From an uncultured Candidatus Saccharibacteria bacterium (lineage in GTDB: Bacteria > Patescibacteriota > Minisyncoccia > Phycocordibacterales > UBA6065): DNA of 64,000 nt. The notes under the pieces are model-generated. The model saw only the letters and a list, made by a program, of their open reading frames with translations. It was not told the DNA's origin and did no database searches. This document shows, piece by piece, positions 7,263-18,491 of this stretch. The stretch is from positions 25,481-89,480 of the forward strand of contig CAYJCZ010000001.1 in NCBI GenBank assembly GCA_964368835.1, in the 5' to 3' direction. How positions within the stretch are numbered: position 1 is the stretch's first letter; each line of letters opens with the position of its first letter. A program made the translations under genes and the position numbers.

Positions 7263-10200
7263 TTATTTGCGAAGCGCTATTTTATAGATGTATTCTTCGA
7301 TAGCGAGTGTTGCAACATGAGAGAGATTTTCGTGCTCAATACCGGTAACCAATGTCACTCGTTTTATTTCTGAAGCAAATTTTGCCACAAGCTCCTTTCC
7401 TTTTTCATCTGAATCCACGAGAAGTACAACCTTATCCCCTACCGTGAGTTTTTCTGTCTTACGAAGTTCCTGTACTGATCGGATGAGGTCACGAATCACT
7501 CCTTCTTTTCGAAGTTCATCGGTAACTGTGATATCAAGTGCCGTATCAGTTTCCAAAGCGTTCACAACGGTCACCGATTTCACATTTACTTCATCTTGAA
7601 TAAGATCAATAAATTCCTGGCCCAAAGATTTTGATTTCACCTTAAGTGAAGAAAGTGGCTGGCGGACTTTTATATTCGCTTTTGCACGTTCCTGCAAGGC
7701 TATCGTCACAAGCTTTCGTGTTTCTGTCATATCGTCTATAACCTTTTCATCGAACTTCGAAACTGTTGGCCAAGTGGTCAAGTGCACGCTTTCTGGATCG
7801 TTGGTTGCCTTTACCTTTGAAAAGAGATGCTCGGCATAAAAAGGTGTATACGGAGCCATTATTTTCGAGAATTCTCTGAGGATATATCGTGTTGTTTCAA
7901 GCGCTGCATTTCTATCCGCAAGATCATCTGACTTAAATCGATCGCGTGAACGTCGCAAATACCATGTTGATAGATCATCAACAAATGCGAGGAGCGGTCG
8001 TGCACCCTTATCTATTTGATACTTCTCCAAACCAGTCGTCACCTCAGAGAGCGTCTCCAAAAATCGCGCGTGTATCCAAAGATCAAGAACATTCTTTGAA
8101 GTAAATGAGAGTGTTTCCTGTGTATTGCCCGTCGCATACATCTCATAGAATGAAAGCACGTTATCGAGTCTTTGTAGGAATTTCTTTGAGACCTCGTCCA
8201 CACCCTTTTCAGAGAATCGAACATCCTCTGCTTTTACCGCAGGAGATGATGCCAAGAAATATCGCAATGAGTCCGCACCATACTTTTCCACTGTAGGCAT
8301 AAGCGGCGGGTAATTATTCTTTGATTTAGACATTTTCTGACCGTCCTCTGCCAAGACAAGTCCGTTTACAACAACATTTTTGTACGGAGACTTACCAAAG
8401 AGTCCAACACCTAACACTATAAGCGAGTAGAACCAGCCTCGAGTTTGATCGAGTCCTTCAGCGATAAAATCAGCAGGATATCCAACGGTCCTATTGAAGA
8501 GTCCTCCCATAGGATTAAAATGCGGTCGAGCTTTGCCAACATAAAACGATTCCGCAAAAGGCATAGATCCTGACTCAAACCAACAATCAAATACTTCTGG
8601 TACTCGTTCGAGCTCTTCACCATCAGGTGCAACATAATCAATCTCATCTATAAATGGTCGATGGAGATCAAGGTTGTAATCTTCGTTGTGTGGCAGTGGC
8701 ACAAAATCCAAAGAATGCATTTCACCAGGTTCCTTAAAATATCGTCTTTCATCGTGGAGAACCTTGTCTGAGCTTGGTGTATCAGCAACACTGTGACTGA
8801 GCGTGTTAAGAATTGCTCCGTGGCTCACAATAAGGATTTTCTTGCCAGAGTGTCGTTCGTCTATATCAAAGAGTGCGCTGAAAGAGCGCTTTTTAAGCTC
8901 GTCAGGTGTCTCCATACCAGGATAAAGGCCATGTGTTCGAACGTATTTATCCGTCTCGGTCCACAACTTACCTTCCCTCTCTGAGCCAACCTTAAATTCA
9001 CGCAAACGAACATCGTATACAATTTCATTTTCAGGTATACCTAATTCTCGAGCATATATTTTCGCTGTTTCTTTTGTTCTCAAAAAGTCTGATGCGACAA
9101 TCACATCAATTCCAGATTTTGCGAGCCTCTTTGCTTGTGCAAGAACCTGCACCCTACCCTTTTCTGTAAGATTATATTTTGCAGTAACATCTGAGTTTGA
9201 AATTCCGAGAGCATTAGCTTCTGATTCACCATGTCGAGCAAGAGTATATTTATTTCCAGATCGCTTTACTAACTTTGAAAGACCTTCGATCGTACCAACG
9301 GTGTATGTCTTACCTGATTTCAAACCGCGCCAAACTGGTATTGGTGCACCCCAGAAACGAGAGCGTGATATCGCCCAATCTCGAGCACCCTCAAGCCAAT
9401 TACCAAAGCGACCATCCCTGATATCTTCAGGTGTCCATCCGATTTTCTTGTTTGCTTTTACTAGATTACTTTTAAAATTTGTAACCTTAACGAACCATGA
9501 CGATGTCGCATAGTTTAGAAGCGGAGTATCACATCTCCAGCAATGTGGATACGAGTGGATGATTTTCTTTTTTTCTAAAAGCAGTCCGTTGTGAGCAAGC
9601 CATTTTATGACCTCGATGTCTGTCTTTTGATGACCATCCTTCTCTACCGCCTTTGGTTTTGCATCTAATCCTGCAAAATCACTAACTTCAGGCTTTATTT
9701 TGCCATCCATCCCGACGTGCTGAATAAATGGAAGCTTTTCTCGCTCACCGAGTTTCATGTCATCCTCTCCGAATGCAGGGGCGATATGCACGATTCCTGA
9801 TCCGTCTGTCGTTGTTACAAAATCTGCCGCATATACCTTGAATGCATTGGTGATATTTTTTGTAGCGTTGGTGTTGTAGTACGGGAAAAGTGGCTTGTAC
9901 TTTTTTCCAACGAGCTCGCGACCAAGCACCGTCTTTATGATTTTATGTTCTGCTCCAAAAACAGATTCTGCTAGCGCTTTTGCAACCACATAAGTGGTTT
10001 CTGCTATTTTGCTTGTGACAAATACGTATTCAATATCAGGATGAACAGCGAGTGCAACATTTCCAGGGAGTGTCCATGGTGTTGTTGTCCAAGCGACGAA
10101 ATATGTCTTTGGCGTATCTATAAGCTCAAACTGTATGAATACAGAAATATCTGTTATGTCTTTATATCCCTGATTTACCTCAAAGTTTGAAAGCGTTGTC

Positions 10201-10757
10201 TCACATCGAGGACAGATCTGCATAGACTTGAAACCTTCATAGACGAGTCCTTTGTCATGAAGCGTCTTGAAAGCCCACCAGACAGACTGAGTGTAGCCAG
10301 GATCCATAGTTCGATAATCATCAACCATATCTACCCATCGACCGATACGAGGGATGATATCGCGCCATTCCTTGGTGTAGCGAAGAACCGCTGCGCGAGC
10401 TGCTGCATTGAACTTCCCTATTCCGTATTCGAGAATATCTTTCTTTGTTTTAAGACCAAGTTCTTTTTCAACAAGGTTTTCTACTGGTAGACCGTGACAG
10501 TCCCAACCCCAGCGTCGAGAAACATGATAGCCTCGCATTGTTTTGTAGCGAGGAATGACGTCTTTTATAGTAGTTGGCAAAAGGTGTCCGAAGTGTGGAA
10601 GACCTGTTGCAAATGGAGGACCGTCAAAAAATACGAACTCTTTTCCGCCCTTTCTCAGAGATTTGCCGAAAATGTCGTTTTTTTGCCAAAATGAAAAAAC
10701 CTTGTCTTCTATTTCAACAAGCTTTGTCTTGGGTTTTGTATCAGGTGCATCAGCCAT
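7263..10757 (-). CDS. ileS: isoleucine--tRNA ligase with an inserted histidine-phosphatase (PGAM-like) domain
   Basis: HIGH region (PHFGHLLP), CP1 editing region, WGAPIPVW and KMSKS motifs. An inserted domain of about 180 aa carries RHGESEAN, SDFLRTKETA and IVSHG motifs (residues about 510-690). Start chosen at MADAPDTKPK; the ORF track extends to 10778. Confidence 0.9.
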   Translation of the reverse strand: MADAPDTKPKTKLVEIEDKVFSFWQKNDIFGKSLRKGGKEFVFFDGPPFATGLPHFGHLLPTTIKDVIPRYKTMRGYHVSRRWGWDCHGLPVENLVEKELGLKTKKDILEYGIGKFNAAARAAVLRYTKEWRDIIPRIGRWVDMVDDYRTMDPGYTQSVWWAFKTLHDKGLVYEGFKSMQICPRCETTLSNFEVNQGYKDITDISVFIQFELIDTPKTYFVAWTTTPWTLPGNVALAVHPDIEYVFVTSKIAETTYVVAKALAESVFGAEHKIIKTVLGRELVGKKYKPLFPYYNTNATKNITNAFKVYAADFVTTTDGSGIVHIAPAFGEDDMKLGEREKLPFIQHVGMDGKIKPEVSDFAGLDAKPKAVEKDGHQKTDIEVIKWLAHNGLLLEKKKIIHSYPHCWRCDTPLLNYATSSWFVKVTNFKSNLVKANKKIGWTPEDIRDGRFGNWLEGARDWAISRSRFWGAPIPVWRGLKSGKTYTVGTIEGLSKLVKRSGNKYTLARHGESEANALGISNSDVTAKYNLTEKGRVQVLAQAKRLAKSGIDVIVASDFLRTKETAKIYARELGIPENEIVYDVRLREFKVGSEREGKLWTETDKYVRTHGLYPGMETPDELKKRSFSALFDIDERHSGKKILIVSHGAILNTLSHSVADTPSSDKVLHDERRYFKEPGEMHSLDFVPLPHNEDYNLDLHRPFIDEIDYVAPDGEELERVPEVFDCWFESGSMPFAESFYVGKARPHFNPMGGLFNRTVGYPADFIAEGLDQTRGWFYSLIVLGVGLFGKSPYKNVVVNGLVLAEDGQKMSKSKNNYPPLMPTVEKYGADSLRYFLASSPAVKAEDVRFSEKGVDEVSKKFLQRLDNVLSFYEMYATGNTQETLSFTSKNVLDLWIHARFLETLSEVTTGLEKYQIDKGARPLLAFVDDLSTWYLRRSRDRFKSDDLADRNAALETTRYILREFSKIMAPYTPFYAEHLFSKVKATNDPESVHLTTWPTVSKFDEKVIDDMTETRKLVTIALQERAKANIKVRQPLSSLKVKSKSLGQEFIDLIQDEVNVKSVTVVNALETDTALDITVTDELRKEGVIRDLIRSVQELRKTEKLTVGDKVVLLVDSDEKGKELVAKFASEIKRVTLVTGIEHENLSHVATLAIEEYIYKIALRK

Positions 10758-10792
10758 AGATACGATGTACATTAGCAATTTTTAGCCATTTT

Positions 10793-12616: not shown

Positions 12617-13051
12617 CTATTTCCCTGTAGATCCGAATCCTCTTTCACCTCGATCTGAGGTTGAAAGCTCACCGTCTTTTACTTCTTTAAAGTTTACCTC
12701 CTCGTACTTGTGAATAATCATCTGAGCAACCTTGTGACCCGGCTCAAACACATACGTTTCTTTACCAAGATTCATAACACCCACCCGCACCTCCCCGCGA
12801 TAGCCAGAGTCAACGACATTTCCATACGTAATGATGCCGTGTTTAAAGGAAAGTCCGCTTTTTTCATAGATGATACCTACACAACCCTCAGGAATTTCCA
12901 TCTTGTAACCCGTGTTTATAGATGCGCGTTCCATGGGTGCAAGTGTAATCTTTTCACCAATATAAAGATCGAAACCCGCGTCGCCTGGCAATGCAAACTT
13001 TGGCACAGGTACATTCTCGCGGATCCGAACAATCTTGAGTGTCTTTTTCAT
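12617..13051 (-). CDS. dut: dUTP diphosphatase
   Basis: dUTPase motifs PGDAGFDLY, GYRGEV and STSDRGERGFGSTG. Start chosen at MKKTLKIV; the ORF track extends to 13090. Confidence 0.9.
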   Translation of the reverse strand: MKKTLKIVRIRENVPVPKFALPGDAGFDLYIGEKITLAPMERASINTGYKMEIPEGCVGIIYEKSGLSFKHGIITYGNVVDSGYRGEVRVGVMNLGKETYVFEPGHKVAQMIIHKYEEVNFKEVKDGELSTSDRGERGFGSTGK

Positions 13052-13099
13052 AAAATCACTATAGCAGGAACAAAAAAACCGTCTACCCATGTAGACAGT

Positions 13100-13732
13100 T
13101 TAGAGTGCTTTTGAGATCGCGTTCTGTACGAGCTCCCAAACTTCATCTTTGGAGCCGGTTGCATCTATGGTCATCGAACGCGAAGGGTTCAGCTTTGCAA
13201 ACTCCTGATACCCATTGCGAACCCTGGCATGAAACTCGGGTCCACGAGTATCAAAATAGTTTGATTCACCTTTGTCTTCTGCGCGCTTCTTTGTCCTTTG
13301 CATTCCGATTTCCGGTGGAACATCCAGAATGATATACATATCCACTGCAATGAGAGGGACAATTGATGCCTTGAGCGAAGCAAACAAATCAAAGAGGTGA
13401 TGACACTCCATTCCGTAAATCTGATACGCAAATGAAGATGCATCAAACCTATCGCAAATCACTATCCTGCCCTCTTTAAGCGCCGGCTCAATAACCTTTC
13501 GAACATGATGAGATCTTCCCGAAAAAGCCTGGGTGATCTGCTCGTATCCATTAAGGTCTTTTGAATATGGCGACGTAAGAACAAGATAGCGTGGACCTTT
13601 CTCTGCAAAATCGGTGCCTCCAATTTCTCTTACAAAAAGAGCGTCAGGATATTTCTTCTTCAGATTATCAATCTGAGTTGTTTTTCCCGCACCCTCGCAA
13701 CCTTCAAATACAATAAATTTTCCTTTCTTCAT
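13100..13732 (-). CDS. tmk: thymidylate (dTMP) kinase
   Basis: MKKGKFIVFEGCEGAGKTTQI P-loop and DRF..S motif. Start chosen at the internal Met next to the glyA stop. Confidence 0.9.
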   Translation of the reverse strand: MKKGKFIVFEGCEGAGKTTQIDNLKKKYPDALFVREIGGTDFAEKGPRYLVLTSPYSKDLNGYEQITQAFSGRSHHVRKVIEPALKEGRIVICDRFDASSFAYQIYGMECHHLFDLFASLKASIVPLIAVDMYIILDVPPEIGMQRTKKRAEDKGESNYFDTRGPEFHARVRNGYQEFAKLNPSRSMTIDATGSKDEVWELVQNAISKAL

Positions 13733-13733
13733 G

Positions 13734-14903
13734 TTATTTAGATCGCAAAACCTTATCAATCCTCTTTGCTAGAGCGATCATATCTTTCTCTTTTTTGCCT
13801 CGCGTTGTTTCTCCTGCTGTACCAAGCCTAATACCAGATGGATCAACCGGTGGTCGAGTATCGTATGGAATAGCGTTCTTGTTTACAATAATCCCTGCCT
13901 TTTCAAGCTTGTCAGAAGCCTCTTTTCCGCCAATCCCCTCTTTAGCTACATCAACCAAAATAAGATGGCTTTCTGTCCCTCCTGAAATGATCCTCCAGCC
14001 AAGAATAGAAAGTTCACGCGCCAATGTCTGCGCATTTAAAATCACCTGTCGAGCATATTTTTTAAATGCTGGTGTAGCCGCTTCTTTGAGCGCAACAGCG
14101 ATCGCTGCAGTCTGGTTCATGTGAGGACCACCCTGAAGTCCAGGAAACACCGCTCGATCAATTTTTTTATTTAATTCCCTGCTATCTACTTTAGAAAAGA
14201 TGAGCGCGCCTCGAGGACCACGAAGTGTTTTATGTGTAGTTGTCGTCACAATGTCTGCGTACGGAAACGGCGATGGATATGCCTTGCCAGCAACAAGACC
14301 TGCAACATGTGACATATCAACCATAAGATACGCTCCACACGCAGTAGCAATCTCACGGAACTTTGCCCAATCAATGACACATGGGTATGCCGTAAAACCA
14401 GCAATGATCATCTTTGGCTTTTCGCGAAGTGCGATTCGCTTTAACTCTTCATAATCTAGAACTTCACTTTCTTTTGAAACGCCGAAAGGTACTTGAGTCC
14501 AGAACTTTCCTGTCGCAGACACTTTATGCCCATGAGTAAGATGTCCGCCATGATCAAGTGACATTCCCATAACCTTATCCCCTTTTTCCAAAAGCCCTAC
14601 ATACACAGCGAGATTTGCAGGAGATCCTGAGAGCGCCTGAGTATTAACCGCCCAATCAAACGGGCTCAATCCAAATAGCTTTAACGCTCGCTCGACCGCC
14701 ATGTCCTCAACCTTATCAACTACCGTGTTACCACCATAGTAACGTTTGCCCGAATAACCTTCCGCGTATTTATTTGTAAGCTCCGAGCCAAGAGCATCTA
14801 GAACATCCTGCGATACATAATTTTCGGATGCGATGAGATTGATAACTGACTTCTGTCGTGCCTTCTCTGCCTTTATGAGCTTTTCTACCTGTTTGTCTTT
14901 CAT
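13734..14903 (-). CDS. glyA: serine hydroxymethyltransferase
   Basis: LIASENYVSQDVLDALGSELTNKYAEGY and the PLP-lysine region THKTLRGPRG; 389 aa. Confidence 0.95.
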   Translation of the reverse strand: MKDKQVEKLIKAEKARQKSVINLIASENYVSQDVLDALGSELTNKYAEGYSGKRYYGGNTVVDKVEDMAVERALKLFGLSPFDWAVNTQALSGSPANLAVYVGLLEKGDKVMGMSLDHGGHLTHGHKVSATGKFWTQVPFGVSKESEVLDYEELKRIALREKPKMIIAGFTAYPCVIDWAKFREIATACGAYLMVDMSHVAGLVAGKAYPSPFPYADIVTTTTHKTLRGPRGALIFSKVDSRELNKKIDRAVFPGLQGGPHMNQTAAIAVALKEAATPAFKKYARQVILNAQTLARELSILGWRIISGGTESHLILVDVAKEGIGGKEASDKLEKAGIIVNKNAIPYDTRPPVDPSGIRLGTAGETTRGKKEKDMIALAKRIDKVLRSK

Positions 14904-14976: not shown

Positions 14977-15510
14977 CTACAGAGTCCAGGCTAAGGGATT
15001 TCTCGCATAACTATCGAGAAACTTTTCCATGCGTTGATACGTGAACATGTCACGGTCCACAAGTGTTTTCCGTACGACAGCAAAACGAGCTGTGGGATTA
15101 AGGACGACATCCTCAAACTCATCAATTGGCCAAACGATGCAATCATTGACCCGCACATCTGCCTCGTATTCATCGGCCTCGTAATTGAAATCAAGGACGA
15201 AGTCTTTGCAAATGATGAGATTGGTCTTTGATCTGAGATCTAGACACTTGTAGCAATAGACGACCAGCAATTCTTTGAGCGTAAGAAGGCGTTCGGTCTC
15301 CGATACAAGCCTTGTGTCATACACCTCTCGAAAATTCTCGAAACTACCTATGCCCCGAAGCATGGGTTCAATTTCATAAGGATCGTTAAACGTTGGTCGA
15401 AGTGCGACTTCCACTGCATCACAGTAGGCATCAACTTGCGTAAGGAGCTGTTCTGCTGAAAATTGGGGGTCTATTTGAAACCGCCCAAGAGTTTTAGGCG
15501 ATGTATTCAT
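14977..15510 (-). CDS. hypothetical protein (177 aa), no recognisable family
   Basis: Clean ORF between glyA and the ThyX-like gene. Acidic, no TM. Confidence 0.4.
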   Translation of the reverse strand: MNTSPKTLGRFQIDPQFSAEQLLTQVDAYCDAVEVALRPTFNDPYEIEPMLRGIGSFENFREVYDTRLVSETERLLTLKELLVVYCYKCLDLRSKTNLIICKDFVLDFNYEADEYEADVRVNDCIVWPIDEFEDVVLNPTARFAVVRKTLVDRDMFTYQRMEKFLDSYARNPLAWTL

Positions 15511-15591: not shown

Positions 15592-16890
15592 GTGGCCATG
15601 AGACAAATAATAATTGTTGACGATGTAGCACCGGAGGCTAATGCGATGCTTCAGGCACTTTATTCACGAAGCCCGAAGAGCGTAACAGAACATCTTGAGC
15701 AGGTAAGAAAGAATGGCGCGGAGAAATTTATGGCCTCGTACTACGTCGGGTACGGCCACAAGTCTATTGGAGACTGCGGTACCACTTCTATCTTTGTCGA
15801 AAACGTTTCAATGCTTGTAGCAAAGGCTGTTCAGGACTGGGCACTTTATAACGGTCAGGAGGCTTCGACTCGATACATTGATATGTCCAAGCAGGAAATT
15901 CTTAACCCGCTTGGTTCAAAGGAAGGAAAAGTGATCCAAGATGAATGGATGAGATTTTATATGCACGTACTTGAGGCACTCATTCCAACCCTGAAGGAAC
16001 GATTCCCTATCAAAGAGGGCGATAAAGAAGTCGTATACGAAAAAGCTATCCGAGCCCGCGCGTTTGATATCGCTCGAGGATTCCTCCCTGCTGGTGCAAC
16101 GACATATGCGAGCTGGCACACAAATCTCCGCCAGGCGCATGATCATCTCAAAGAAATGCGAAACCACCCTCTCGAAGAAGTTCGCATGACAGCACTTGAG
16201 ATTTTGAAGTCACTTCAGACTAAATATTCTTCAAGCTTCCTCCACAAAGAATATCCAAGTGAAGAAGAATACATCAAAAAATCTATCAGCGAGTTCGCTT
16301 ACTACGATGAAAAATCAATAAAGAAGTTTTCATACAAAGTTCGACTTGATCTTAAGGGCTTAAAGACTCACCAGAAACTTCTCAAAGAGCGCCCAGCAAA
16401 AGCAGAACTCCATCAGCGATTCCGACAGTATGGCGACATGGTCTTTTCATTCCCTCTCGATTTCGGATCATACCGAGATCTTCAGAGGCAGCGATCAGCT
16501 GTGCAGGAAATGCCTCTTCTTTCAACCAAACACGGTTTCTATTCTTGGTATCTCGAGCAGCTTCCAAAAGATCTTCGAAAAGAAGCAGAAAAAGTACTCA
16601 AGGAACAGGAAAAACGAATCGCAAAACTCAAGACAACAGCGGAGGTAAAGCAGTACTACACCGCTATGGGATATACGATTGCCGTAAAAATGTCATGCCA
16701 TCTCCCTTCTGCTGTATACATTGCAGAGCTAAGATCATCTGACACTGTTCATCCAACGCTTAGAGTTCAAGCGCAGCGTATGGGTGATGCCATCAAGGCG
16801 TCGGTTCCAGGTATAGCGATGCATCACGACACTTCCCCAGGAACATGGAATATAAAGCGCGGTAATCAGGATATTGTGAGGAAGGATTAA
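15592..16890 (+). CDS. thyX: flavin-dependent thymidylate synthase ThyX-like protein with tandem duplicated Thy1-like domains
   Basis: GYGHKSIGD, VSMLVAKAV-QDW-ALYNGQEASTRY and ...LRQAHDHLKEMR... align to the Thy1 family consensus (GHxS, vS..vahqlvRHR.aSyn.eSqRY, NLR..H). A second weaker copy follows (RQR ... ELRSSDTVHPTLRVQAQRM). Total 432 aa versus about 220-250 for single-domain ThyX. Confidence 0.6.
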   Translation: MAMRQIIIVDDVAPEANAMLQALYSRSPKSVTEHLEQVRKNGAEKFMASYYVGYGHKSIGDCGTTSIFVENVSMLVAKAVQDWALYNGQEASTRYIDMSKQEILNPLGSKEGKVIQDEWMRFYMHVLEALIPTLKERFPIKEGDKEVVYEKAIRARAFDIARGFLPAGATTYASWHTNLRQAHDHLKEMRNHPLEEVRMTALEILKSLQTKYSSSFLHKEYPSEEEYIKKSISEFAYYDEKSIKKFSYKVRLDLKGLKTHQKLLKERPAKAELHQRFRQYGDMVFSFPLDFGSYRDLQRQRSAVQEMPLLSTKHGFYSWYLEQLPKDLRKEAEKVLKEQEKRIAKLKTTAEVKQYYTAMGYTIAVKMSCHLPSAVYIAELRSSDTVHPTLRVQAQRMGDAIKASVPGIAMHHDTSPGTWNIKRGNQDIVRKD

Positions 16891-16931: not shown

Positions 16932-17483
16932 TTATTTCATTCCAGGATATGTCTCAACCTCAGAATTAATCACTTGAAGTAAGACTCCTGCTTCCTTTAG
17001 AATCTCTTTGCTTCTGCTTGCAGCATGATAATCCTTTTTCGAAACGATACGAATAATACCTGCGTTTATGAGGATTTTTGCGCATGTATAGCACGGTGTC
17101 ATGTGGCAATAAAGCGTTGCACCATTTACCGGAACCCCTTCTCGAGCGGCATTTGCAATAGCATTCTGCTCAGCATGAGTTGTGCGAATGCAGTGCTTTG
17201 ATGTTGTGCCGTCTTCTTGTACCACCGTGTGCATTTCATGGCCCACATGATCACAGTGAGCAACACCAGCTGGTGCCCCAACATATCCCGTCACAAGAAT
17301 TCTTTTATCCTTTACGATCACACAACCAGACCTACCACGATCACACGTTGCCCTCTCGCCCACCACGTCGCAGATCTTTATAAAATATTCATCCCAAGAC
17401 GGACGAACATGAGGATTCATAAGATGAGGATCGGTTTCCTTTATCGGAGTTGATGATTTTGATGTTTTTACATGCTTTGCCAT
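16932..17483 (-). CDS. comEB: dCMP deaminase (ComEB/cytidine-deoxycytidylate deaminase family)
   Basis: Zinc-binding motifs HAEQNAI and PCYTCAK, plus PSWDEYF as in dCMP deaminases. An alternative internal start is at MNPHVRPSWDEYF (17420). Confidence 0.85.
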   Translation of the reverse strand: MAKHVKTSKSSTPIKETDPHLMNPHVRPSWDEYFIKICDVVGERATCDRGRSGCVIVKDKRILVTGYVGAPAGVAHCDHVGHEMHTVVQEDGTTSKHCIRTTHAEQNAIANAAREGVPVNGATLYCHMTPCYTCAKILINAGIIRIVSKKDYHAASRSKEILKEAGVLLQVINSEVETYPGMK

Positions 17484-17921: not shown

Positions 17922-18491
17922 TTAACTCTTCCAGCCGGTGTCAGGTACCGCTTGTTTTGCTTGCTGGGAGTTTTCTGAAAACATCAGAGTCTCCCGGCCG
18001 TAGAGCGGGTTCGGACGAAACGTCTCGAGACAATCAAACCGAATAGGACTGGCTGTGTCGAGCTTGTAGAGCCAAATACATTCCTCGACCGCAGCCACAA
18101 CATCAGAAACATTCGGGGTACAACGCTCGAGCATCTGTTTCGGATTGCAATCGATCGCTCCGCCCACAAGTCGACTGACCTTTTTTCGACCTGTATGCAG
18201 GACGAGAATTGGTTTACCATAGCGCCAGAGAGCGGCACCGATTTCAATACCGAGTCCCGTCGACTCTTCATCGACAAAACAAACAAAGAGATCACACGTA
18301 GCGACATTTTCTTCAATGTCGCACTTATAGACATCAGTCCTGGTGCCGTCTGTTGTGCCGAGGAATCTCAGTAAGATGATCTTGTGGCTAAGACGATCGA
18401 TGAGGGTTTTCTTGACCGAGTCCATGTATGCAATGAAAGCTTCATCCGCGTGGGTGAGCTTGTGACCAAAATACAGCATTACTTTTGACAT
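17922..18491 (-). CDS. nucleoside 2-deoxyribosyltransferase / Rcl(DNPH1)-like N-glycosidase family protein
   Basis: DLFVCFVDEESTGLGIEIGAALWRYGKPILVLH matches the D...E.G.A...GKP signature of the Nuc_deoxyrib_tr / deoxynucleoside 5'-monophosphate N-glycosidase fold; 189 aa. Confidence 0.55.
   Translation of the reverse strand: MSKVMLYFGHKLTHADEAFIAYMDSVKKTLIDRLSHKIILLRFLGTTDGTRTDVYKCDIEENVATCDLFVCFVDEESTGLGIEIGAALWRYGKPILVLHTGRKKVSRLVGGAIDCNPKQMLERCTPNVSDVVAAVEECIWLYKLDTASPIRFDCLETFRPNPLYGRETLMFSENSQQAKQAVPDTGWKS

Follow-up and report, generated by a model that had tools for sequence, protein, structure and literature searches.

In many bacteria thymidylate is made solely by ThyX, the flavin-dependent thymidylate synthase (FDTS), which is a drug target because humans lack it. 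A 2004 PNAS study is said to have shown that the residues of a single ThyX active site come from different subunits. In the canonical homotetramer, three subunits contribute to each site. The first supplies the Arg-His-Arg motif (RHR), an Arg upstream of it and Arg174, which contact the phosphates of flavin adenine dinucleotide (FAD) and also deoxyuridine monophosphate (dUMP). The second supplies Thr/Ser55 and Arg165, which contact FAD, and the third supplies Glu86, Ser88, Arg90, Tyr91 and Arg147 for dUMP contacts and for the lid. In the Mycobacterium tuberculosis enzyme, subunit A contributes its RHR and subunit B its S71 and R190 to FAD binding, and dUMP is contacted by R95 and R199 of subunit A together with R87, S105, R107 and the lid residue Y108 of subunit C (PMC6514825). 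PolB (PDB 4P5A-C), a UMP/dUMP C5-methylase of polyoxin biosynthesis with the ThyX fold, contacts its nucleotide through F79, R82, H83, R86 and R193 of one monomer and E94', S96', A97', R98' and R166' of a neighbouring monomer (PMC5003785). In Thermotoga maritima numbering these two sets are F71, R74, Q75, R78 and R174 versus E86, S88, G89, R90 and R147. The gene described here lies in a 64 kb stretch of DNA (contig CAYJCZ010000001.1) from a bacterium of the candidate phyla radiation (CPR) and encodes a long ThyX, in which these residue sets are divided between two domains of one chain. The whole 64 kb stretch is called the window, and all coordinates are counted in its positions.

The window protein was compared with canonical ThyX as represented by T. 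maritima TM0449, M. tuberculosis Rv2754c and the Helicobacter pylori and PBCV-1 enzymes. The canonical fold is the same as that of both halves of the window protein, the set of residues contacting FAD and dUMP is the same, and the expected chemistry and the pathway context (serine hydroxymethyltransferase, dUMP suppliers and Tmk) are alike. Canonical ThyX has one domain per chain, whereas the window protein has two, and here the RHR/Arg174 set and the Ser88/Arg90/Tyr91/Arg147 set stand on separate domains. With this separation, no more than two of the four pockets can be complete. The window protein is probably a working FAD-dependent thymidylate synthase of the long type, a fused heterodimer with two live and two dead sites. 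The gene and its two domains are as follows.

15592..16890 (+), whole open reading frame of the long two-domain ThyX, stop codon included
15598..16239 (+), N-terminal Thy1 domain, residues 3-216 (Pfam, hhalign)
16240..16887 (+), linker helix and C-terminal Thy1-like domain, residues 217-432 (AlphaFold, Foldseek, Pfam in homologues, hhalign)

A preliminary description of this DNA had placed a ThyX-like protein of 432 amino acids here, and translation returned the reading frame with the quoted peptides in their places. The figure of 432 holds for the mechanical open reading frame, which has 432 codons and opens with GTG at 15592. All public gene calls of the identical protein choose instead the ATG two codons on, at 15598, which gives 430 amino acids and is likely to be the true start. 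No obvious Shine-Dalgarno sequence was seen upstream of the thyX start, and no stop codons or frameshifts were present inside the reading frame.

The search with Pfam gave a single match to PF02511 (Thy1), over residues 21-210 (E 7.7e-15; 55.6 bits versus a gathering cutoff of 24.8). Nothing significant was found when the C-terminal half of the window protein was scanned against Pfam, and a weak Endotoxin_N match in this half (E 0.038-0.12) was regarded as noise. When 30 homologous C-halves were scanned singly, 11 presented a Thy1 match (best E 2.5e-4). The AlphaFold model of the full-length protein had a predicted local distance difference test score (pLDDT) of 88.7 and a predicted template modelling score (pTM) of 0.88, and in this model the order of strands and helices occurs twice: strand 65-73, helix 74-81 and strand 88-90 are paralleled by strand 281-290, helix 291-297 and strand 303-305. 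The PDB fold matches listed by Foldseek for the full-length model were ThyX or its homologue PolB only. The C-half modelled alone (residues 217-432; pLDDT 91.7) gave 125 PDB matches at E<=1e-3, and the best 50 of these 125 were all ThyX or PolB. Foldseek probability was 1.00 at the top ranks, with template modelling (TM) scores of 0.5-0.6 per domain and about 0.55-0.6 for the C-half.

Profile comparison with hhalign against the single T. maritima sequence was too weak and was replaced by comparison against a canonical ThyX profile, built from T. maritima ThyX and 15 viral ThyX sequences. Both halves matched this profile, the N-half with E 6.8e-10 (probability 96.6%) and the C-half with E 6.7e-6 (probability 84.7%). 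The N-half was also aligned with the C-half when a broad alignment of 108 long ThyX sequences was used (E 1.4e-4), comprising CPR, other representative, Acidobacteria-type and phage proteins; a shallow alignment of 38 sequences gave no signal (E 0.055, 21 columns). Less diverged relatives show the second domain directly. The gp50 protein of phage Tunturi_5 has two Thy1 stretches, and acidobacterial long ThyX matches the curated thyX equivalog model TIGR02170 in two stretches of 46-47 bits, which is also under the cutoff. Because of the fold matches, the Pfam hits in homologues, the hhalign results and the two-stretch relatives, the second half is a ThyX domain. Of the two tandem Thy1 domains first proposed, both folds are thus real, although the Pfam search, for which two hits were expected, returned one in this protein. 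The C-half has the Thy1 fold and is not a member of an unrelated family.

Residue conservation was assessed in the 108-sequence alignment and in an alignment of 75 CPR sequences, consisting of the window protein and 74 full-length genes of species genomes, down to 46% identity. The following positions are relevant in domain 1.

15751..15765 (+), YGHKS, residues 54-58; H56 corresponds to T. maritima H53 and S58 to T55
15823..15843 (+), KAVQDWA, residues 78-84; site of the canonical R-x3-RHR, no Arg, a degenerate half-site
15859..15876 (+), EASTRY, residues 90-95; E90, S92, R94 and Y95 are equivalent to T. maritima E86, S88, R90 and Y91, the dUMP-binding and lid residues
16066..16089 (+), DIARGFLP, residues 159-166; R162 is the counterpart of T. 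maritima R147, which contacts the dUMP phosphate (hhalign)
16123..16131 (+), NLR, residues 178-180; N178 and R180 are the counterparts of T. maritima N163 and R165

Both H56 and S58 were present in all 75 CPR sequences and, save for one exception at H56, in all 108 long ThyX. No Arg occurs between K78 and R94, and therefore domain 1 is without RHR under any alignment; a hidden RHR in this domain was ruled out on the same ground, and realignment did not bring a canonical one to light. The loss of RHR had already been noticed, with QDW (residues 81-83, nt 15832-15840) named as its equivalent. These three residues are where they were said to be, but the profile alignment (hhalign) sets D82-W83-A84 against T. 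maritima R78-H79-R80, a shift of one residue. The retained SxRY motif was confirmed as the STRY of EASTRY, in which S92, R94 and Y95 are universal among the 108 long ThyX and E90 is replaced by Q in one. R162 was found in 75 of 75 CPR sequences and is G in three of the 108; the phosphate-binding role of this R147-type position is taken from R166' of PolB (PMC5003785). R180, likewise present in 75 of 75, is equivalent to T. maritima R165 and to M. tuberculosis R190, the FAD contact made by the second subunit. The essentially invariant positions of domain 1 in the 75 CPR sequences were H56, S58, D61, E90, S92, R94, Y95, R162, N178 and R180. A further Arg of this domain, R190 of the window protein (16159..16161), is the N-domain equivalent of Arg174; it is kept in 55 of the 75 CPR sequences, is Leu in the Acidobacteria-type proteins, and could be a remnant, the rest of that half-site being gone, or could point to remaining function of a vestigial pocket.

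Domain 2 presented the converse pattern.

16474..16494 (+), RDLQRQR, residues 295-301; the ThyX motif R-x3-R-(H/Q)-R, with R295 corresponding to R74 and R299-Q300-R301 to R78-H79-R80
16510..16521 (+), MPLL, residues 307-310; the canonical S88-G-R90-Y91 position, degenerate (hhalign)
16651..16653 (+), Q354; the position of T. maritima R147, phosphate-binding Arg lost (hhalign)
16726..16764 (+), ELRSSDTVHPTLR, residues 379-391; R381 is equivalent to T. maritima R174, which contacts uracil, and H387 is universal

The RQR segment, first reported near residue 290, is actually at residues 299-301. R295, R299 and R301 are universal in the 108 aligned long ThyX. Of the 75 CPR sequences, 52 have His at position 300 and 23 have Gln, and all sampled Acidobacteria-type and phage sequences have His. 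Judged from these alignments, the canonical R-x3-R-H-R of the family stands in domain 2, and the window protein is a common Gln variant; the assignment is made because the R-x3-RHR spacing is exactly that of T. maritima R74...R78-H79-R80. At the positions of Ser88, Arg90 and Tyr91, domain 2 has Met, Leu and Leu, and Pro372 occupies the position of Arg165 (hhalign). The role given to R381 is inferred from that of R193 in PolB (PMC5003785) and R199 in M. tuberculosis ThyX (PMC6514825). The positions of domain 2 that were invariant in the 75 CPR sequences were R295, D296, Q298, R299, R301, R381 and H387.

The two domains thus retain complementary residues. The C-domain holds only the set that subunit A provides in the canonical enzyme (R295, R299-Q300-R301 and R381), and the N-domain holds only the sets of subunit B (S58 and R180) and subunit C (E90, S92, R94, Y95 and R162). 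The T. maritima dUMP set (R74, R78, E86, S88, R90, R147 and R174) is complete when both domains are counted: the C-domain contributes R295, R299 and R381, and the N-domain contributes E90, S92, R94 and R162, all at positions that are universal or almost universal in the 108 long ThyX. The FAD contact set is also present, formed by R299-Q300-R301 of the C-domain and by S58 and R180 of the N-domain, the latter two being invariant in CPR. The RHR-x7-S motif is absent from either domain by itself, and exists only in split form, with S92 in domain 1 and RQR in domain 2. The residues universal in long ThyX, apart from the one exception at H56, are H56, S58, S92, R94 and Y95 in the first domain and R295, R299, R301 and R381 in the second. 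A role as an FAD-dependent thymidylate synthase is favoured because the residues kept by each domain match the sets that different subunits provide in the solved structures. The fused pseudo-dimer with complementary, partly degenerate halves suggested in the preliminary description is supported by this pattern, in which R295, R299, R301 and R381 of the C-domain complement the N-domain set, and by the neighbouring genes of deoxythymidine monophosphate (dTMP) synthesis presented below.

In the proposed mechanism, the chain would be a fused heterodimer, and two chains would pair in the way that the ThyX tetramer is built, giving a pseudo-tetramer. When the three two-fold axes of the tetramer (dihedral symmetry, D2) are applied to the roles A, B and C, two complete sites would be formed, each from one C-domain and both N-domains. 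The sole consistent arrangement would be the one in which the two C-domains are the pair that never shares a site. The remaining two sites would be vestigial, without any of the key residues. From this analysis we infer that a dimer of chains would hold two FAD and two dUMP sites and would convert dUMP, methylenetetrahydrofolate (CH2-THF) and nicotinamide adenine dinucleotide phosphate in its reduced form (NADPH) to dTMP and tetrahydrofolate via FAD. The 2004 PNAS case is reportedly a laboratory demonstration on a homotetramer, and the long ThyX differs from it in that the division would be fixed by duplication, fusion and complementary loss.

Several points weigh against this interpretation. 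Symmetry was used to deduce the quaternary structure and how the composite sites are shaped; neither was observed. Searches of PDB sequences with the window protein, the two family alignments and an acidobacterial long ThyX gave no match, and neither an experiment on any long ThyX nor a solved structure of one was found. The score of the window protein with TIGR02170 was 16.5 bits versus a cutoff of 87.9, and the protein carries Gln (Q300) in place of the central His of RHR. Near the RHR of the C-domain, the gap in the hhalign alignment moved by two residues between runs. Of the sequences with which the M. tuberculosis and T. maritima numbering was mapped, that of T. maritima was validated only indirectly, by its retrieval of ThyX homologues. 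No thyA, folA or short thyX was detected in the 64 kb window by tblastn (queries: ThyA and FolA of E. coli, ThyX of T. maritima), and a second thymidylate synthase may lie outside it. Both the score below the TIGR02170 cutoff and the lack of a one-domain RHR-x7-S motif, in which the protein departs from the classical family, are consequences of the split design.

It is unlikely that the reciprocal pockets are also live, as a second kind of site, with the N-domain taking the RHR part and the C-domain the Ser/Arg part, that would bind NAD(P)H, a regulatory nucleotide, or dUMP via other residues, for example K78 and R190. This would bring the enzyme to four working pockets, of two types. The lining of the reciprocal pocket is conserved in CPR (K78, Q81, P308 and Q354 each in 75 of 75 sequences, M307 in 72 of 75), R190 is kept in the 55 sequences mentioned above, and canonical ThyX has no dedicated NADPH-binding domain. 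About a quarter of all positions are invariant in the CPR family, however, and conservation within CPR therefore tells little. Across the long family the reciprocal-site positions K78, Q81, W83, M307, L309, L310 and Q354 vary between subfamilies. At K78, Q81, D82 and W83 of CPR the Acidobacteria-type proteins have I, V or A, D and E, and at M307 and L309 they have G or L and G or E; the Acidobacteria-type residues at the pocket positions include I/V/E/R/W and G/E/F, with Leu at 190. Conservation restricted to a subfamily is the pattern expected of structural packing and not of a shared ligand site. The reciprocal pocket is also stripped of almost all cationic residues. The reading with two live and two dead sites is preferred on these grounds.

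The distribution of the long ThyX was examined by several searches. A word-indexed protein search returned more than 4,300 homologues, all of about 430 amino acids. The named ones were called "FAD-dependent thymidylate synthase" and came from Paceibacterota, Parcubacteria and Taylorbacteria, and the listed homologues were 59-100% identical to the window protein. The protein is encoded by 425 species-representative genomes; the best 80 of these 425 are nearly all Patescibacteria (CPR), mostly with full-length matches. In an exhaustive search of 1.84 billion representatives, clustered at 50% identity, at least 776 clusters were recovered with E<=1e-30, and the number rose to 2,760 with E<=1e-3; the best 150 representatives matched over both domains or were fragments. 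Genes about 50% identical to that of the window were present on contigs of genomes labelled Spirochaetota, Gammaproteobacteria and Bdellovibrionales (loci L053, L061 and L069). These could be mis-binned CPR contigs or could reflect lateral transfer.

Long ThyX proteins are not confined to CPR. A profile of the phage proteins retrieved thousands of proteins of about 520 amino acids, and the named ones were from Acidobacteriaceae, Terriglobales and Acidobacterium sp.; their sources label these acidobacterial proteins as FAD-dependent thymidylate synthase or ThyX. A Clusters of Orthologous Groups (COG) survey, as quoted in a review, found ThyX in six of six Acidobacteria and ThyA in none (PMC5954106). 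The survey is compatible with a housekeeping role of the long form, and a short ThyX is also possible in those genomes. Within the long class, the closest described relatives of the window protein are the ~520-amino-acid proteins of Acidobacterium sp. S8 and Terriglobales, Tunturi_5 gp50 (518 amino acids) and gp020 of phage Ma-LMM01 (491 amino acids, PHROG 36506, labelled "thymidylate synthase"). A protein of Vibrio phage vB_VmeM-Yong (461 amino acids) is 32% identical over 100% of the query, and its predicted structure matches the full model with a query-normalised TM score (TMq) of 0.79. The long ThyX homologue of these jumbo phages of 280-290 kb (L081 3980..5365 in Vibrio phage vB_VmeM-Yong MS32) carries no label other than "hypothetical protein" in four records.

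Common to the long class are, in domain 1, YGH-x-S and G-x-E-x-STRY (GQE-x-STRY in Acidobacteria-type and phage proteins) with no RHR, and in domain 2, R-D-x2-R-H-R and ELR...H without S-x-RY. At ~430 amino acids, proteins of the CPR form are shorter than those of the Acidobacteria-type and phage forms, and the residues of their vestigial pockets differ. The second domain of the window protein is also too diverged for Pfam, and RQR replaces RHR in about 30% of CPR sequences. The architecture had been described as unusual. It is in fact standard in CPR, in Acidobacteria-type bacteria and in some phages, and the proteins are already named ThyX. The gene in the window is an ordinary, conserved and already annotated thymidylate synthase of a CPR bacterium and no oddity of this genome.

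The ThyX of Chlamydia trachomatis (CT632) is reported to be an active enzyme and has been used in inhibitor screens, and chlamydial ThyX has been described as too divergent for ThyX phylogenies. The C. trachomatis protein, of about 529 amino acids, could be a long two-domain ThyX. Its membership would give the long class a member that has already been studied biochemically. Literature searches found no paper on a tandem or two-domain ThyX, on a split site, or on ThyX in CPR, and in the recent literature ThyX is still presented as a plain homotetramer (PMC9931769). The proposed mechanism of the class, a fused heterodimer with half the sites, for which conservation and symmetry are the evidence, is possibly under-described.

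The genes surrounding thyX were examined in the window, and the conservation of these neighbours was counted within 6 kb of the gene in 46 related CPR loci, each represented by 12 kb or more. Four genes of dTMP synthesis flank it.

12617..13090 (-), dUTPase, which makes dUMP (Pfam PF00692, E 1.2e-27)
13100..13759 (-), thymidylate kinase, dTMP to dTDP (Pfam PF02223, E 3.7e-33)
13734..14903 (-), serine hydroxymethyltransferase, which regenerates CH2-THF, the carbon donor of ThyX (Pfam PF00464, E 2.9e-156)
16932..17483 (-), dCMP deaminase, which makes dUMP, convergent with thyX (Pfam PF00383, E 3.1e-22)

The neighbours conserved in the 46 loci were tmk (25), glyA (23), dut (22) and the dCMP deaminase gene (19). 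In phage Tunturi_5 the long ThyX gene (gp50) also adjoins genes for dCMP deaminase and dUTPase. Guanylate kinase (gmk) is encoded somewhat farther upstream of thyX in the window, and the other neighbours, including aminoacyl-tRNA synthetases, L11 and NusG, are housekeeping genes. The setting is not a secondary-metabolite cluster or a phage base-modification cluster.

This context bears on a second alternative, a neofunctionalised ThyX-like enzyme whose substrate would be a different pyrimidine nucleotide or whose C5 chemistry would differ (a UMP methylase such as PolB, or a dCMP or hydroxymethyl transferase of the kind found in phage base modification), which we regard as quite improbable. The substrate range can change in ThyX homologues, as PolB methylates UMP besides dUMP and its loops 1 and 2 adapt to UMP (PMC5003785). 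PolB is among the fold matches of the C-half, but it is a single-domain homotetramer of an antibiotic gene cluster that accepts UMP, and the context in the window suggests no such role. The low TIGR02170 score might also be cited for neofunctionalisation, as might the two-domain relatives in jumbo phages. A fold match of the full-length model is the "thymidylate synthetase" of Bacillus phage SP-15, which has two-domain length (BFVD A0A127AWA5, 413 amino acids; 388 columns, E 5.7e-5, TMq 0.37). The DNA of SP-15 carries hypermodified thymine, and some long ThyX-like proteins may serve base modification. In the window protein, however, all dUMP-contacting residues of solved ThyX and PolB are kept in one domain or the other, including the equivalents of Arg90 and Arg174, which read the uracil. 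The gene is moreover a conserved housekeeping gene in the 425 species genomes, placed beside dut, tmk, glyA and the dCMP deaminase gene, and the 64 kb window showed no second thymidylate synthase. The earlier suggestion of a neofunctionalised pyrimidine-modifying enzyme hence received no support, all dUMP-contacting residues having survived in a context of housekeeping dTMP synthesis. A catalytically dead remnant or pseudoenzyme, or two genes joined by an error of assembly or annotation, would agree with the single domain seen by Pfam and with the lack of RHR-x7-S in either domain alone, but this is effectively refuted by conservation, as the same uninterrupted reading frame of about 430 amino acids, without stop or frameshift, occurs in the 425 species genomes and on independent contigs, and its homologues, 59-100% identical, have invariant catalytic residues.

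If the split-site reading is true, a very large group of organisms, spanning much of CPR and the Acidobacteria-type bacteria and perhaps other lineages, runs ThyX with half the usual active sites. The roles of the three site-forming subunits would be permanently parted onto two domains, and the long ThyX would be a natural tool to dissect subunit roles and asymmetry in flavin-dependent thymidylate synthesis. There are also gaps in annotation, as Pfam gives one domain in CPR proteins and the thyX equivalog model misses the class. For the window itself the significance is modest, the gene being the expected housekeeping thymidylate synthase of a CPR bacterium. A wider proposition is that all long ThyX are obligate fused heterodimers with two sites per pseudo-tetramer, undescribed structurally and biochemically, and that the vestigial pockets of the CPR proteins have been recruited, for instance for NAD(P)H or an allosteric nucleotide. 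In this full form it is rather unlikely to hold. The obligate-heterodimer class would comprise the enzymes of CPR and Acidobacteria-type bacteria, of certain jumbo phages and cyanophages, and perhaps of Chlamydia.

Three other reading frames near thyX were also examined in related CPR loci. Between glyA and thyX, an open reading frame of 177 amino acids (14977..15510, -) is a gene call on three independent contigs; it had no match in Pfam, NCBIfam or PHROG, and stood beside thyX in one of 80 related loci. An open reading frame of 189 amino acids (17922..18491, -) has a weak resemblance to nucleoside 2-deoxyribosyltransferase (PF05014, E 0.033; phrog_9107, E 0.0017) and was found in six of the 80 loci. 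From its sequence it could be a further nucleotide-salvage gene of the cluster. Lastly, a class-I (Ile-type) aminoacyl-tRNA synthetase of 1171 amino acids (7263..10778, -) carries an inserted domain of the histidine-phosphatase superfamily. The insertion (PF00300, E 9.8e-27) is at residues 513-669, inside the catalytic domain, and is also present in the public gene call. A match covering more than 50% of this reading frame was found nearby in six of the 80 related loci.

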